Program-made: the position numbers and the translations under genes
Notes under the pieces: model-generated
The model's database searches: none
Told to the model about the DNA's origin: nothing
What the model saw: only the letters and a program-made list of their open reading frames with translations
In this document: positions 4,736 through 33,515 of the stretch, one piece after another
Layout of the letters: every line of letters starts with the position of its first letter
Position numbering within the stretch: the first letter of the stretch is position 1
IMG/VR virus record: IMGVR_UViG_3300027861_000005
Length of the DNA: 48,453 nt
Strand: one strand, 5' to 3'
Source: a virus

Positions 4736-5809
4736 TTAGCCATTCGTAACAAGGAATGCGATTGGCACATTCTTGCGGAAATGGTTTCGTTTCCAGTTCG
4801 TGCCCAACTTCAGGTCAGCAATGGTCTGCCATAGTCCGTCACCAGCACCACCGCTGCTTTCAGCAGCAGTGTTGGTAACGTCAAGGTTGCTGTGACCGCT
4901 TGGGTGGAGCAACCACGTCTTGCGTTCCCAAAGTGTTTCTTCGCCAGCACCGTCACCAATTGCCGGGTTACGGTCAATTTCAACAGGTGTTGTGGGCGAT
5001 CCTTCGCCGTAGGCAAAGGCGGCTGCACCGTAAAGCACGGTCGTGTAACGGAACCCTCCGCCGGAGGTTGTCGCAATAACAGGAGCAGAGTCGTCAACGA
5101 TGACACGATGACCCTGATACAACGGAATTCGTCGCTCTTGTTTTGAATCAGGGATGAAATCAATATCATCATTGTTAATCATTCGCTGATAAATCACCGA
5201 ATGACATAGGATTGCAGACAAATCTTCAACATGATCCCCCATCGTAAACCGTGCTGTCGTGAAAGCTGTTCGGTCGAAAAAGTTGACCGAAGTACCAACA
5301 CCGTTATCGATGGAAATATCAGTGACCATGTCGTTAGTCGTACCAAAACCGGTATCTATACCGGCATTGGCTGCAATAATGTTGGCATTATAAATGCCAA
5401 CTGTTGCAGCGATGACCCGACGTTGCCACTGCCACATCCAATATCGCGAAGTTCGAGCCTTGATTCGCTCCATCGCAAGATCGCCCATTGTGACTTCATT
5501 CGTGAGATCACGGACAGACCAAGCATTATTTAATGCTGCTCGCTTCGCATCCATACGCCCCTGAACAATCTTGTTCGGCGTTGCACTGGTATCTGCATCG
5601 GATGAATAATTTGGCTCGTCTGCGGGGTCAAGGTCTCGCCAAAACGGCATCTTAGCAAGTTCGGCTTCTTCCACAGCCAAAGCATCCATTGCGGGAGTCC
5701 GCACCACCACACCTGATTCGAAAAAATCAGTCCGTTCTGGATTATTCTCGGCAGCAATACCTTGATAAATTTCGACGTCGATAACGTCTGCGAGTTTGAC
5801 CGTAGCCAT
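4736..5809 (-). CDS. Major capsid protein
   Basis: 357 aa, lying between the scaffold gene and the connector genes and followed by a strong hairpin terminator. Call is by position and size. Confidence 0.75.
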   Translation of the reverse strand: MATVKLADVIDVEIYQGIAAENNPERTDFFESGVVVRTPAMDALAVEEAELAKMPFWRDLDPADEPNYSSDADTSATPNKIVQGRMDAKRAALNNAWSVRDLTNEVTMGDLAMERIKARTSRYWMWQWQRRVIAATVGIYNANIIAANAGIDTGFGTTNDMVTDISIDNGVGTSVNFFDRTAFTTARFTMGDHVEDLSAILCHSVIYQRMINNDDIDFIPDSKQERRIPLYQGHRVIVDDSAPVIATTSGGGFRYTTVLYGAAAFAYGEGSPTTPVEIDRNPAIGDGAGEETLWERKTWLLHPSGHSNLDVTNTAAESSGGAGDGLWQTIADLKLGTNWKRNHFRKNVPIAFLVTNG

Positions 5810-6608: not shown

Positions 6609-8108
6609 TTAATTTGTAAGGTCTTCAGCCTTAGAGTTAGGTTGATCTTTTGCCGACGCTGGCTCAAGATCTGGATTTATTGAATCGATAAATGATTGAT
6701 CTGCTTTGATTGCAGCCATCGCATCTTCTACACTGTTCTTAACTAAACCGCTTCGTCGTAAATTTTCATGAACTCCAGAAAACGGTATAAGTCTTGCACC
6801 AAATAGTTCGATCAACCAACGAAGTTCTTCGGCGCTCATTGAAGTAAGATCAAAATTGTCATTTAACTCAACTTCGATTTCTTCATCCCCGGTGGTATCG
6901 ACGAATAAGGCGGCCTTCTTCAAACATGAGAGCAAAGCCGCTTCCAAGTTATCTTTAATGGTACTTAAAACAGATTTTTGGCTCGCTGCCTCAATCTGGA
7001 TCTCTGCTTCTTTCCGTTCAACAGTCTGCCGTGGATTGATGATTTTTGCACCAATTGCAATCATCTGTTCTTCCTTGTGGGTCATTGCTTCAAACGCGAG
7101 CGTATTTGGCATTGCCTGCAACAAGTGTGCTGTAGCGTCTTCGGGTAGCGGAACAGCGGCACGAGAACCGAAAGGTATTCCTTTCTGAAAATGATTGGTT
7201 ACCCAATCGTCGGTCAAACCTGCATACACAGGTGTTGGTTGACCGACAAGAAAAACACTTTCTTCGTAGTCGGCTGAATTGCGATAGTGTGCGATGTTCA
7301 AAACCGCCATTGAATACAACGGTGGTTCGTCAATCTCTGAATCGTTGTTTTCACTACCAACAAACTCAAATGGAATTTCACCCAGATTTTTACCGTCTTG
7401 CCCACACAGGTTGTAGGCTTCCTTGAGATCTCCACTTTCTTCATCCCACACTTCGACGCTTACACAACCATCTTCCAGCAGTCGATATACTCGATACTTG
7501 TGCGAGGTCTGTACTTTGAAACTGTCGTAACCCGAAGTATATTCATAAGCCTCTTTTAAAACCAACATAACCAACTTATGTTCGGTTTTAATTTTGGTAA
7601 TTTGCCAGTTAATAATAGCCCAAGGTGGGATAAATCGAATCGTCGGACGGATGCCACTTTCAACGTCGGCTTTAGTGACCTCCCCATCTGTTACGGGAAA
7701 GTCTGCGAGTAATCCACCACGACCGTAAGGTAGAATATGGTTGGCTGCTTTTCGAACCAACTGTTCGAAACTTAAACCTTCACCGTTGATATCTTCCAAC
7801 ATCATTTCCATGCTTTTTGGAACCTTCACTTTAGGTTCTCGAAGGAACAGTTGGCCGACTAAAGCATCTTGAGTAGGTTTAATCACGTTGTAGTAAACTG
7901 CTCGCATTTTGTAAGACGCATAACGCTCCAGTTTTTCTGTTTGACTGTCGCACGAAGACGGCATTGGCAGGTAAGTCACCCCTTTATCTTTAACTGCGAG
8001 TTCCCCTTCAAGCGAATCGCTAATAATGTTATATTTCTTTCTTGCTTGAACCAACTCTGGACGTTCGACGTTACATTTTAATGCTTTCGTAGTCATCAAT
8101 GTGCCCAA
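6609..8108 (-). CDS. Portal protein
   Basis: 499 aa, directly downstream of the large terminase gene and overlapping it by 13 nt. Confidence 0.8.
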   Translation of the reverse strand: MGTLMTTKALKCNVERPELVQARKKYNIISDSLEGELAVKDKGVTYLPMPSSCDSQTEKLERYASYKMRAVYYNVIKPTQDALVGQLFLREPKVKVPKSMEMMLEDINGEGLSFEQLVRKAANHILPYGRGGLLADFPVTDGEVTKADVESGIRPTIRFIPPWAIINWQITKIKTEHKLVMLVLKEAYEYTSGYDSFKVQTSHKYRVYRLLEDGCVSVEVWDEESGDLKEAYNLCGQDGKNLGEIPFEFVGSENNDSEIDEPPLYSMAVLNIAHYRNSADYEESVFLVGQPTPVYAGLTDDWVTNHFQKGIPFGSRAAVPLPEDATAHLLQAMPNTLAFEAMTHKEEQMIAIGAKIINPRQTVERKEAEIQIEAASQKSVLSTIKDNLEAALLSCLKKAALFVDTTGDEEIEVELNDNFDLTSMSAEELRWLIELFGARLIPFSGVHENLRRSGLVKNSVEDAMAAIKADQSFIDSINPDLEPASAKDQPNSKAEDLTN

Positions 8109-9787
8109 TTCATTTTGATTTTAGTGATGAACTTATTTGAACCCTTGAGAACGCGATATCTTACTGCGTCCCAAAGATGATCTTCTGCGTCTGTGTCAAC
8201 ATCATCTGGCTTATCTGGATCTCTCGGCAAGGGCGGTAGTAACTCAACACAGTGTTTACAATTCCGCATAAAGTAAATGCCCGGACCTTCCAGTAACGTA
8301 GAAGCCTGTAAACGGTCTCGCATTAATTGTAAACCAATTATTCTTGAACCCGCCGACTTATCAGACTGAATCCAACGAACACCTTCCTTTTCCATTTTGT
8401 ATTCAATGGTGTCAACATCAGATTCGGTCACGTTTCGAATTTGATTATCTGCCGGTCCCGCTTGAACCCTAGATTTAATCCACTGCTCGGAAAATAAAAC
8501 TTCCTCTTTCGATTTAATTCGCAAAGCAACATCTTTTGCCGACAATTTCAAACCTTTATTTGTATTCACATTCTCAGTGCCATAATCTTCCTCAATTGCA
8601 ATCAAACTTCCTCTAGGCGGGCACCAAGTTTTACCATTCGGCAATCTGACTTCTTCCCCGTTCGCTTCTGCCCAAAACACTGTCGCAAACGGATGCGTTG
8701 AGCCCCAGTCAAACGACCTGTCAACTTTCCATTCGACGGGAATTTGAAACCGATCAATAACATGAACACGGGTGTCCCAAACATCATTTATTGCACCGCC
8801 ACTATTGACGTCCCAACGTCCTTCAATCCACGCAGCATGTAAATTTGGATTGTTTGCGCAAGATTCGATGAGGCCCGCGCGGTACACAGGGTCAAGGTAC
8901 GGATTCTCAAAGAACGATCCAAAAATTGCAACTTGCGTTCTAATTACTTCAACTTCTTGGCCTGCCGACGTATCAAAATAGGTTACGCGGTTCTTTACAA
9001 TCTCTCCGTTCTTTGCAACATCGATAAATCTTCGTTTTACCCAATTGTGCCCCGGCCCATTTGGATTTGTGGTGGCGAAAACTTCCAGCGATATAGGCGG
9101 CAAGGGTTTTTGATCGGGAGTGTCGTAAACGGGTTGTCCGTTTTGCAAAATCGTAGGTGTATGTTTCTCTGAGACAAATGAGCAGCGATTTACTGACATA
9201 AACTTGTCATACAGTTCTGCGGTTGGTTGCTTCGTCAACTCATTCCAGCCAATAAACGGGTATTCATGCCCGTGAAACGCATCGTAATCATCCAATTTTT
9301 TAACATGCCTGAACAGCAATTCTTCACCTGTTGGCCACACCCATTTGTATGCTGTTGCAGATGCGTGAAACTTCGCGCCGTCTTCAAACTTTGGAAAGAA
9401 CCTATTGCTCTGTGCGACCATGTCTGACAGATTCTTAAATTCCCGGTCAAAGATGATGCCTTTCCAGTAAGCACCATAACCCAACCCAACCCTACTTCGA
9501 AACCGCATTAACTGCGTTATCGTTTTGCCCGGACCTCTGGCACCGTGCATCAGCGTGTGGTGGGCTCGCGTCACAATTGCGAATGATTGCGACGAATCTG
9601 GAATAGGTTCCCACACTACATTTGAAGCTATCGTTGATTCAACTTGGGGTTTCTTTACTGGTTTCAACACCTGTAAGGTTGAATCTTGGGCAGGTGCGTG
9701 CGCAGACAATCTATCAACAACAGCCGAGAGGTTGCCCGCCCCTGTTTGCTGTGGCGAATCTAAAATTTGTCCCCATTCTCTACCCAT
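8096..9787 (-). CDS. terL: Terminase large subunit
   Basis: 563 aa with Walker A GARGPGKT near the N-terminus, a C-terminal nuclease-like region (FDWGSTHPFA) and the expected gene order. Confidence 0.88.
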   Translation of the reverse strand: MGREWGQILDSPQQTGAGNLSAVVDRLSAHAPAQDSTLQVLKPVKKPQVESTIASNVVWEPIPDSSQSFAIVTRAHHTLMHGARGPGKTITQLMRFRSRVGLGYGAYWKGIIFDREFKNLSDMVAQSNRFFPKFEDGAKFHASATAYKWVWPTGEELLFRHVKKLDDYDAFHGHEYPFIGWNELTKQPTAELYDKFMSVNRCSFVSEKHTPTILQNGQPVYDTPDQKPLPPISLEVFATTNPNGPGHNWVKRRFIDVAKNGEIVKNRVTYFDTSAGQEVEVIRTQVAIFGSFFENPYLDPVYRAGLIESCANNPNLHAAWIEGRWDVNSGGAINDVWDTRVHVIDRFQIPVEWKVDRSFDWGSTHPFATVFWAEANGEEVRLPNGKTWCPPRGSLIAIEEDYGTENVNTNKGLKLSAKDVALRIKSKEEVLFSEQWIKSRVQAGPADNQIRNVTESDVDTIEYKMEKEGVRWIQSDKSAGSRIIGLQLMRDRLQASTLLEGPGIYFMRNCKHCVELLPPLPRDPDKPDDVDTDAEDHLWDAVRYRVLKGSNKFITKIKMNWAH

Positions 9788-16506: not shown

Positions 16507-16535
16507 AGTTTAGGTGCGTATTTGCTGGGTGTCAA
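16507..16535 (-). promoter_or_regulatory. Sigma70-like promoter, TTGACA-17 nt-TAAACT
   Basis: On the minus strand, TTGACA at 16535-16530, a 17-nt spacer and TAAACT at 16512-16507, about 60 nt upstream of the ATG at 16440. Confidence 0.5.
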
Positions 16536-16608: not shown

Positions 16609-16649
16609 GAAGAGTACCCGGATTGATTTTCCCCGGATTCTGGATATTT

Positions 16650-16714
16650 GGGGTCCGCCGCGGCGCCGCCGCGCGTCCCCCCCCGCCCCCGCCGTCGTCG
16701 CATCGACGACGCGC
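16650..16714. other. 65-bp GC island (57 of 65 positions G/C) with C8 and C5 runs and a perfect 8-bp hairpin
   Basis: GGGGTCCGCCGCGGCGCCGCCGCGCGTCCCCCCCCGCCCCCGCCGTCGTCGCATCGACGACGCGC. The CGTCGTCG/CGACGACG stem lies at 16693-16711. Confidence 0.9.
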
Positions 16715-16721
16715 ACTGCCA

Positions 16722-16784
16722 TCACAATGACGACACTATGTCGTCACAATGATGACACTGCAACGTAGTCACAATGATAACACT
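16722..16784 (-). repeat. Three 16-bp direct repeats of TCACAATGAYRACACT (minus sense AGTGTYRTCATTGTGA)
   Basis: Copies at 16722-16737, 16744-16759 and 16769-16784, spaced 22 and 25 bp apart, directly downstream of the stop at 16783. Confidence 0.85.
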
Positions 16785-16965
16785 ATTTACTATCTACTGG
16801 AGTCAAGTCTAATGGCTTTCCTGTTGTCAATTCGCACCACGTGTCGCTGCCCTCTGCGCACCACACGCCGTTGACCTTCACCAATCCGTCCGAGTTTGTT
16901 TCGCTTGTGTTACAACCACAACACAACACAACACAACACAACACAACACAATAAATCTTCAGCAT
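16783..16965 (-). CDS. Small lipoprotein-like or secreted protein (60 aa)
   Basis: The ATG at 16965 is preceded by TTGAAAGGTTTGAT, the same box used by early genes. N-terminus MLKIYCVVLCCVVLCCGCNTSE resembles a signal peptide. Confidence 0.65.
   Translation of the reverse strand: MLKIYCVVLCCVVLCCGCNTSETNSDGLVKVNGVWCAEGSDTWCELTTGKPLDLTPVDSK
16917..16951. repeat. Perfect pentanucleotide microsatellite, (CACAA)7 on the plus strand, (TTGTG)7 in coding sense
   Basis: Counted directly. It lies inside the signal-peptide codons CVVLCCVVLCC. Confidence 0.95.
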
Positions 16966-17002
16966 ATCAAACCTTTCAAAGACTGTCTTCAATCCACTCA
17001 AA

Positions 17003-17272
17003 TCACAATTCAACTGATTCTCCACGTCCTTCACGACATGCGATACAATCACACTGCTGACGCAATCCGGCATAACAGGTGTAGCATTTCATCGGCCGCG
17101 CTGGTCGCGTTACGGGCCGACTGAACACACGCAGGGCGTCAACGTAAACTGCATGATGTTTTCGCTCGCGATGCAAGCTCGATGCGTTGCCGCCTTGCGT
17201 CACCAGCTTGTCTATTTCTTCCTGTGTTGAAATAACCAGTTCGTGCAACGTCGTTGTCAGTGAGTCTACCAT
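17003..17272 (-). CDS. Hypothetical Cys-rich protein
   Basis: ATG at 17272 preceded by GAAGGAAGAAC, with an in-frame TAA immediately upstream. Contains CYTC...CDCIAC. Confidence 0.6.
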   Translation of the reverse strand: MVDSLTTTLHELVISTQEEIDKLVTQGGNASSLHRERKHHAVYVDALRVFSRPVTRPARPMKCYTCYAGLRQQCDCIACREGRGESVEL

Positions 17273-17336
17273 TTAGTTCTTCCTTCATGAAATTGTTGAA
17301 CAATTCTCTCAAATCATTTTTAGTTTTTGCATTCAT
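17139..17336 (-). CDS. Possible leaderless first ORF of the leftward arm. Only its first ~21 codons are free of overlap
   Basis: The ATG at 17336 lies exactly 7 nt after a TACAAT -10 box. The C-terminal two-thirds overlaps 17003-17272 and is Arg-rich and low-complexity. Confidence 0.25.
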   Translation of the reverse strand: MNAKTKNDLRELFNNFMKEELNGRLTDNDVARTGYFNTGRNRQAGDARRQRIELASRAKTSCSLR

Positions 17337-17342
17337 ACACCT

Positions 17343-17371
17343 ATTGTACGTTATATATCGTCAATCGTCAA
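17343..17371 (-). promoter_or_regulatory. Leftward sigma70-like promoter, TTGACG-17 nt-TACAAT
   Basis: On the minus strand, TTGACG at 17371-17366, a 17-nt spacer and TACAAT at 17348-17343, followed by AGGTGT and then ATG. Confidence 0.65.
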
Positions 17372-17406: not shown

Positions 17407-17697
17407 TTGAGACTGAATCTCAATACTAAATTATCTTCACAATATATCACAATTGATACTCAATCTCAATATAACAATTCTCGCACAATAAATCGATATT
17501 GAGACTTAATCTCAATATTCAATATTCTCAAATAAAATCAAAATTGATACAGAATCTCAATATCAATTTTTCTTGCAAGAATTCAATATTGAGACTTAAT
17601 CTCAATATTAAACTATCTTCAAAATAATCACAATTGATACTGAATCTCAATATTGTAATTTTGAATCATTTTTATACTATTGAGACTTAATCTCAAT
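17407..17697. repeat. Array of seven 19-23 bp palindromic sites (ATTGAKAC-N-AATCTCAAT) at about 45-bp intervals, forming 3.5 copies of a ~91-bp unit
   Basis: Sites at 17407-17425, 17453-17471, 17496-17518, 17544-17562, 17586-17608, 17634-17652 and 17679-17697. TTGAGAC and TTGATAC versions alternate. Confidence 0.9.
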
Positions 17698-32795: not shown

Positions 32796-33515
32796 ATGGT
32801 TCTGAATTTACCTGAAGCATTCGATCCGTCGCAAACAGCACCGTCAACCGGCAGCGCCGGTCAACTACCTGTGTCCGATGCGAAAGGTCATGTGGTTGTT
32901 ATTGTCAGCGGTGAAATGGTGCCAACCGCCGGTGGAAGTGGCACATTCTTGGCATTGACCTTGCGGGTTGTAGAAGGTGTGGCAACGGGCGCCGAAGGTG
33001 TGCATCGTCTAAATCTGCACAACCAATCGGCAGATGCTGTCAGAATTGCTTACTCTGAACTATCGGCAATCTGCCACGTTGTTGGCTGGTTGCAGCCATT
33101 GCAGGACGTGGAAGTGTTGTATAACAAACCCTTCCGTGTTGTGGTCGGAACACAAAAAGGCAAGGAAGCGGAAGGATACACAAGCGTTAAGAAAATCATG
33201 GATGTTCACGGAGCTAAGCCGGGCGAGCGGGCGGCAGGTGCAGCCACGGTTGCAGCACCAGCACCAGCACCAGCACCAGCACCAGCACCAGCACCAGCAC
33301 CAGCACCGGTTGCAGCACCGGTTGCAGGCGGATTTCCTGTGCAACCACCCGTGCCACCACCTGCTGCCGCTCCAGCAGTCGCTGCTGATCCTGTAGCGAT
33401 GCCTGTTGTTGAGAACGTGCCTTTTGCCGCACCTGTGGCACCAGCACCCGTAGCGGCACCTGTTGCACCGACTGCACCTGCGAACCCTGCCGCCGCGCCA
33501 TGGGCACAAGGCTAA
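32796..33515 (+). CDS. DUF669-like phage ssDNA-binding protein with an Ala/Pro-rich tail
   Basis: N-terminus MVLNLPEAFDPSQ...G.LPV.DAKGHVVVI is typical of DUF669 and it is adjacent to Sak4. The C-terminal (AP)n tail is low-complexity. Confidence 0.65.
   Translation: MVLNLPEAFDPSQTAPSTGSAGQLPVSDAKGHVVVIVSGEMVPTAGGSGTFLALTLRVVEGVATGAEGVHRLNLHNQSADAVRIAYSELSAICHVVGWLQPLQDVEVLYNKPFRVVVGTQKGKEAEGYTSVKKIMDVHGAKPGERAAGAATVAAPAPAPAPAPAPAPAPAPVAAPVAGGFPVQPPVPPPAAAPAVAADPVAMPVVENVPFAAPVAPAPVAAPVAPTAPANPAAAPWAQG
33255..33302. repeat. (GCACCA)8 in-frame hexanucleotide repeat encoding (AP)8
   Basis: Counted directly. It generates spurious ORFs in other frames and on the opposite strand. Confidence 0.95.

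Follow-up and report, generated by a model that had tools for sequence, protein, structure and literature searches.

The stretch of DNA analysed here, henceforth the window, comprises the 48,453 nt of the uncultured virus IMGVR_UViG_3300027861_000005 and belongs to a tailed phage with a GC content of 44%. Its large terminase (8096-9787) has its best cultured match in Paracoccus phage vB_PmaS-R3 (62% identity), and the phage encodes its own primase, helicase and DNA polymerase as well as a Cas4-type nuclease. No near relative is present among 50,697 phage records. The genome is laid out divergently, with leftward genes to the left of ~17.4 kb and rightward genes to the right of ~18.1 kb. The locus under study belongs to the leftward set, and its features are listed below together with the structural genes.

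4736-5809: major head protein
39-47 kb: tail genes
16507-16535, minus strand: another promoter-like site, TTGACA-17-TAAACT, that precedes the next gene (16153-16440/16482), from a consensus scan
16717-16784, minus strand: three direct repeats of 21-25 bp with an ATTGTGA core, directly after the stop of the 60-aa ORF
16783-16965, minus strand: 60-aa ORF, including its TAG stop
16786-17005, minus strand: 220-bp cassette made up of a 37-nt leader, a ribosome-binding box and the whole ORF, from alignment and BLAST, with a boundary that is ambiguous by 1 nt
16917-16951, minus strand: perfect pentanucleotide tract (TTGTG)7, which is (CACAA)7 on the plus strand, from direct reading, TRF and a regex census
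16972-16979, minus strand: translation-initiation box TTGAAAGG, which precedes the ATG at 16965 by 6 nt
17003-17272, minus strand: 89-aa Cys-rich early gene, upstream of the 60-aa ORF
17343-17371, minus strand: promoter-like site TTGACG-17-TACAAT of the leftward early transcript, from a consensus scan only

The 60-aa ORF thus belongs to the early region, past the divergent control region, with the 89-aa Cys-rich gene on one side of it and a block of non-coding repeats on the other. An earlier note, made from the letters of the sequence, had placed it among the first genes of the leftward transcript. In line with this, consensus scans put it second behind the promoter-like site at 17371-17343 and detect no terminator-like site between the 89-aa gene and the 60-aa ORF.

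The control region has some features of its own. A 65-aa ORF (17139-17336) overlaps the 89-aa ORF on the same minus strand in a different frame. Both have positive codon scores (0.198 per codon for the 65-aa ORF and 0.083 for the 89-aa ORF), and both are called as genes in a JGI contig (L020). Between the divergent early units, at 17407-17654, TTGAGA-N5-TCTCAA palindromes form a 45-bp periodic array, several copies of which overlap promoter-like hexamers on both strands.

The tract at 16917-16951 reads as an uninterrupted (CACAA)7 of 35 bp, as described earlier. It is flanked at 16912-16916 by the near-unit ACAAC, so that TRF reports an array from 16912 to 16951 with period 5 and 7.8 copies. 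According to the regex census, the 48.4-kb window contains two long perfect microsatellites, this tract and an in-frame (CAGCAC)9 at 33253-33306. (CACAA)7 is the sole long repeat that breaks the frame, the next pentanucleotide run having only three units. A perfect 35-nt run of period 5 in 48 kb is far from anything chance would produce: with about 30 constrained bases, we estimate an expected number in the order of 1e-13. Moreover, the tract is not an assembly artefact, since seven units are found in three independent ENA assemblies and a Logan contig enters it as well.

Read along the minus strand, the tract begins at the last position of codon 5 and ends at the first position of codon 17; the segment CVVLCCVVLCC (C6-C16) is accordingly wholly repeat-encoded. 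This bears out the view that the tract encodes the hydrophobic core of the 60-aa product. What had been overlooked is that (TTGTG)n translates into (LCCVV)n in all three frames. Hydrophobicity alone is therefore no evidence of a designed signal peptide.

The other long microsatellite, (CAGCAC)9, codes for an (Ala-Pro)n linker within a 239-aa ORF (32796-33515), the length of which could vary in frame.

Comparison with related contigs adds a point that was not part of the earlier description: the 60-aa gene is a strain-specific cassette of 220 bp. Relatives were retrieved by exact-protein look-ups of the neighbouring genes (the 89-aa gene and its 90%-cluster variants) in ENA, Logan and JGI samples. 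Besides the window, four contigs carry the cassette (L013, L014, L015 and L016), and they are 99.9-100% identical to the window. Eight relatives (L017-L023 and L025), which are 93-99% identical to it upstream and 84-95% downstream, have an empty site: their BLAST matches end at 17005 and restart at 16785, the block 16786-17005 being precisely missing. Two more contigs (L026 and L066) stop short of the site. A search of the viral contigs with a flank pattern allowing a variable gap yielded no further carriers or other repeat numbers, nor did a conserved 21-mer reveal further carriers among the metagenome contigs.

The junctions are tightly fitted to the reading frames. In the relatives, the 89-aa gene ends in ...GAATTG-TAG; in the window it is the 60-aa ORF that ends in this TAG, and the 89-aa gene takes a TGA stop from the cassette. 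The ends of the cassette share 1 nt of microhomology only and have no terminal inverted or direct repeats, on which grounds a mobile mini-element was rejected. As a discrete insertion relative to close relatives, carrying a ribosome-binding box and an ORF, the block has the make-up of a moron or accessory cassette, although a minimal one, since the consensus scan detects neither a promoter nor a terminator of its own. The carriers constitute one clone, the non-carriers belong to several haplotypes, and the 89-aa gene of the window looks mosaic among these non-carrier haplotypes. For these reasons, gain of the cassette in the window lineage is the simpler reading, one that we infer from an unrooted comparison.

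To follow the consequences of slippage, alleles with different numbers of repeat units were simulated in silico, with the following products.

n = 4: in-frame product of 55 aa with an 8-residue hydrophobic core
n = 5: 25 aa
n = 6: 16 aa
n = 8: 30 aa
n = 9: 21 aa
n = 10: in-frame product of 65 aa with an 18-residue hydrophobic core
n = 1: MLKIYCGCNTS..., without the hydrophobic core

The claim that adding or removing one or two units destroys the frame holds for each of the four simulated alleles concerned, and in these off-frame alleles a stop is met 2-14 codons past the tract. Likewise, the simulated n = 4 and n = 10 products confirm that a change of three units amounts to five residues and preserves the frame. 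The repeat unit is not a multiple of three, the tract is 5'-proximal and in frame, and a one-unit change leads to premature termination, as in opa-type loci. An opa-like ON/OFF design is thus present in the sequence.

Whether such a design is put to use bears on how the repeat number behaves. All carriers that span the tract, that is the window together with L014, L015 and L016 from three ENA assemblies and three samples, have seven units. As these carriers are near-clonal, with 0-1 SNP over 0.8-3.6 kb, this invariance has little power. The remaining carrier, Logan contig L013 (SRR8436405, k = 31), ends 28 nt into the tract and has at least six units; its break says nothing on heterogeneity, because a graph with k = 31 cannot cross a 35-nt run of period 5, in which the 30-mers repeat. 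Among 2.9 million viral contigs, (TTGTG) tracts of at least six units occur in 39 stretches, most of them intergenic, and no convincing case of a (TTGTG)n tract within a signal peptide was found there. Homologous viral contigs do differ in the number of units, with 16 in L057 against 12 in L062 and 10 in L027 against 8 in L046. Both pairs differ in the length of (TTGTG)n only, which is direct evidence that the unit is unstable in viral genomes and speaks indirectly for mutability of the present tract.

One viral contig, L042 (IMGVR_UViG_3300017530_000010), at first resembled an analogous signal-peptide gene and was rejected, its (CACAA)n tracts really belonging to the 5' leaders of opposite-strand genes. 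In its minus-oriented segment 2601-2940, two adjoining genes have (CACAA)6 and (CACAA)15, respectively, directly upstream of a Shine-Dalgarno-like sequence (AGGAACAA) and an ATG. These leaders are paralogous and have very different repeat lengths, making them candidates for repeat-tuned 5' leaders.

These data bear on a first alternative, according to which the gene is real and the tract is a recently expanded microsatellite that by chance makes a tolerable signal-peptide core and is stable or merely mutational, any frameshift variants being lost or being neutral mutants of a gene that can be spared, with no selected ON/OFF switching. Such a reading agrees with the presence of seven units in each tract-spanning carrier, with the mostly intergenic location of (TTGTG)n tracts in viral contigs, and with the absence of any other frame-breaking repeat from the window, which therefore gives no sign of a general repeat-switch strategy. 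Moreover, the 60-aa gene is dispensable, as close relatives lack it. On the other hand, the near-clonality of the carriers weakens the argument from invariance, (TTGTG)n length does vary between related viral contigs, and in those bacteria for which measurements exist, perfect pentanucleotide tracts of at least seven units are prone to slip (Neisseria opa; PMC13183285). On balance, we regard this alternative as unlikely.

A second alternative denies that the ORF is translated at all: the cassette would be a non-coding remnant or spacer that contains a microsatellite, and the 'signal peptide' would be a by-product of a repeat made of T and G only, a possibility to which the appearance of (LCCVV)n in all frames lends itself. 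The ORF is indeed an orphan. No homologue was found in 5.8 billion protein clusters, in viral contigs, JGI metagenome contigs or GTDB genomes, or by tblastn in INPHARED (50,697 phage records), and there is no match in PHROGs, Pfam, NCBIfam, PADLOC or PDB. Two HMMER hits among 1.84 billion representatives were judged spurious, being repeat-inflated matches to Ig/cadherin-like arrays with a pairwise E of only 1e-4 over 26-37 residues. Furthermore, the gene callers of the assemblies skip the ORF, and its GC content by codon position, GC3 included, is atypical for the phage.

The start signal and the codon usage nevertheless argue against a non-coding cassette. The ORF reads MLKIYCVVLCCVVLCCGCNTSE..., in agreement with the earlier reading, and its full product is MLKIYCVVLCCVVLCCGCNTSETNSDGLVKVNGVWCAEGSDTWCELTTGKPLDLTPVDSK. 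Six nucleotides upstream of its ATG lies an exact copy of TTGAAAGG, an octamer that occurs 11 times in the window against 2.7 expected, a number reached by none of 100 shuffles. At least seven of these copies are located 6-8 nt before the start of ORFs of at least 58 aa, and other early genes are among them. With a codon table built on 33 long window genes, the 44 codons outside the repeat score 11.36 bits in frame, compared with -41 and -28 when they are read out of frame. Windows of 44 codons from real genes score 10.5 +/- 5.1, and of 340 windows that lack stops but are antisense or in a wrong frame, just 1.5% attain 11.36. In addition, the end of the cassette coincides with the stop codon of the ORF, and the reading frame is intact in all four carriers. 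A structured RNA or a known RNA family is not favoured either, because there is no stable fold (z = +0.85) and no match to an Rfam family. Taken together, the ORF described earlier does exist and is probably translated, given its TTGAAAGG box and its typical in-frame codon score; we consider it quite probably a real gene, and a non-coding cassette quite unlikely.

That the tract is a DNA or RNA cis element, for example an expanded array of an ATTGTGA-type motif, found repeatedly at control points of the phage, that would bind a regulator or affect the mRNA, with coding being incidental, appears very improbable: the window contains 29 copies of ATTGTGA where 12.8 are expected, this motif is found three times directly downstream of the ORF and once at the left edge of the cassette, the tract begins with ATTGTG, and a (CACAA)n repeat can act as a leader sequence, since the (CACAA)6 and (CACAA)15 tracts of the unrelated contig L042 lie just upstream of Shine-Dalgarno sequences, but the 5-bp period does not rebuild the full ATTGTGA heptamer, the ORF that encloses the tract scores well, no plus-strand gene is located downstream of the CACAA strand, and an RNA structure signal is lacking.

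The downstream repeats at 16717-16784, which have the TTGTG core in common with the tract, are kept in the relatives, with extra CATTGTGATGG copies. The ATTGTGA-core array at 16700-16790 varies in this respect, with three tandem CATTGTGATGG/CATTGTG units in the relatives L017-L022 and one in the window. Next to it, at 16640-16712, the window has an island of extreme GC content that contains a perfect hairpin, CGTCGTCG-ATG-CGACGACG, whereas close relatives have a G6AG7-type run and a much less GC-rich sequence at the same place. This segment is therefore hypervariable among phages that are 93-99% identical; the island could be a packaging or regulatory site.

Taking the 60-aa ORF as a gene, its predicted product has the layout of an exported precursor. 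A short n-region, MLK with a positive charge at K3, is followed by an uncharged hydrophobic core of 13 aa (I4-C16) with a mean Kyte-Doolittle value of ~3.1 by hand calculation, by G17-C18, and by an acidic putative mature part of 43 aa. The positive n-region, an uncharged core within 7-22 residues and a cysteine (C18) within 15-35 are in keeping with a lipoprotein precursor. The core falls short of the length of a membrane span and has a size that suits a signal peptide. The lipobox itself deviates: L14-C15-C16-G17-C18 fails both [LVI][ASTVI][GAS]C and PROSITE PS51257, [LIVMFWSTAG](2)-[LIVMFYSTAGCQ]-[AGS]-C. Because the cysteine at -3 breaks the PROSITE-type rule, the ORF was also missed in a pattern scan of all ORFs of the window, and this lipobox scan detected no canonical lipoprotein among the real genes of the phage. 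Of the lipoprotein-like character attributed to the product, the n-region, the core and the position of the cysteine thus stand, while the lipobox, L-C-C-G|C, does not. The product is likely exported, and it is possible that it is a lipoprotein.

The single-sequence AlphaFold2 model of the product has a helix at residues 3-16 and a hairpin at 28-37. With a pLDDT of 55 it is of low confidence, too poor for a fold search and of no use as evidence. The ORF also contains a 24-nt tandem duplication (16833-16877; 76% identity), which gives rise to two x-x-W-C motifs, VNGVWCA and EGSDTWCE, with C36 and C44. The mature peptide may have grown by duplication.

As to function, an Rz1-like outer-membrane spanin subunit is ruled out by the position and the dispensability of the gene. 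The earlier note had proposed a likeness to Llp-type superinfection-exclusion proteins. T5 Llp, Cor of phi80, N15 and HK022, and Ltp of TP-J34 are small phage lipoproteins that block superinfection; they are early or constitutive, exported, dispensable accessory proteins. The 60-aa product resembles them in being small, early, predicted to be exported, and a dispensable accessory. It shares no sequence similarity with Llp, Cor, Sie or any other family in PHROGs, Pfam, NCBIfam, PADLOC or PDB, its lipobox is non-canonical, and its gene is not located beside a receptor-binding protein gene. Judged by these comparisons, the Llp/Cor/Sie idea is without sequence or positional support.

In mechanism, the closest known system is opa of Neisseria. 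In opa genes with (CTCTT)n, the repeat encodes the hydrophobic core, and the same pentapeptide repeat results in all frames, because 5 and 3 share no factor. The pentanucleotide repeat is situated in the 5' signal-sequence coding region, and its copy number sets the frame (PMC13183285). The phage locus resembles opa of N. gonorrhoeae and N. meningitidis in both the location of the pentanucleotide in the signal-sequence region and the repeat-encoded core. It differs in that a single-copy phage accessory gene takes the place of a bacterial chromosomal multigene family, and a TTGTG unit with a 43-aa peptide that of (CTCTT)n with a beta-barrel adhesin; moreover, the phage tract has seven units in each of the near-clonal carriers that span it.

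Among host-adapted bacterial pathogens, simple-repeat phase variation is a hallmark trait. For phages, to our knowledge, it has been demonstrated experimentally only for the polyG tracts of Campylobacter phages. As cited in PMC11868660 and PMC10877375, the receptor-binding protein genes of Campylobacter (Fletchervirus) phages contain polyG tracts that are hypermutable (Sorensen et al. 2021, Cell Rep 35:109214), and where PMC11868660 cites that study it takes it as proof of phase variation in phages. As a phage gene with a simple-sequence repeat able to switch expression, this system is the closest in phage context. There, however, the repeat is a homopolymer, the genes are structural tail-fibre genes and switching was demonstrated by experiment, whereas here the repeat is a pentanucleotide in a candidate gene for an early exported mini-protein, described from sequence only. 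Both the pentanucleotide opa-type design and phage simple-repeat phase variation are thus already known kinds.

The preferred reading, to which we assign an even chance, is that the tract lies within a real, strain-specific accessory ('moron'-type) early gene and forms a potential contingency switch, fixed ON at seven units in the available data. The 60-aa gene would be the second cistron on the leftward early transcript, as suggested by the promoter-like site, and would be translated from the usual signal of the phage, TTGAAAGG-N6-ATG, which is seen in the sequence and presumably used. The 60-aa precursor would consist of the n-region MLK, the 13-residue hydrophobic core from (TTGTG)7, and G17-C18 with what follows. 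This signal would most likely direct export of the acidic 43-aa peptide, which may be lipid-anchored at C18 and may contain a C36-C44 disulfide hairpin. According to the simulation, slipped-strand gain or loss of one unit would yield 30 or 16 aa (OFF) because the unit is 5 nt long, and a change of three units would resize the core and keep the frame. A role early in infection at the cell envelope, such as exclusion or receptor masking, would be our guess. Switching is plausible in our analysis, and the locus is a credible candidate for it.

A more far-reaching reading is that an environmental, apparently virulent phage bet-hedges an early envelope-targeted mini-protein, active for example in exclusion or receptor masking, by an opa-style switch that itself constitutes the export signal, the signal peptide having been made de novo by microsatellite expansion. 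We regard this full version as decidedly unlikely.

A recent review calls for the mapping of phase-variable loci over phage phylogenies (PMC11868660). If the switch proposed here is true, the opa design would extend to viruses of environmental bacteria, and a phage population would contain heritable heterogeneity in the remodelling of infected cells. The locus would also provide a clean example of an export signal born from repeat expansion.
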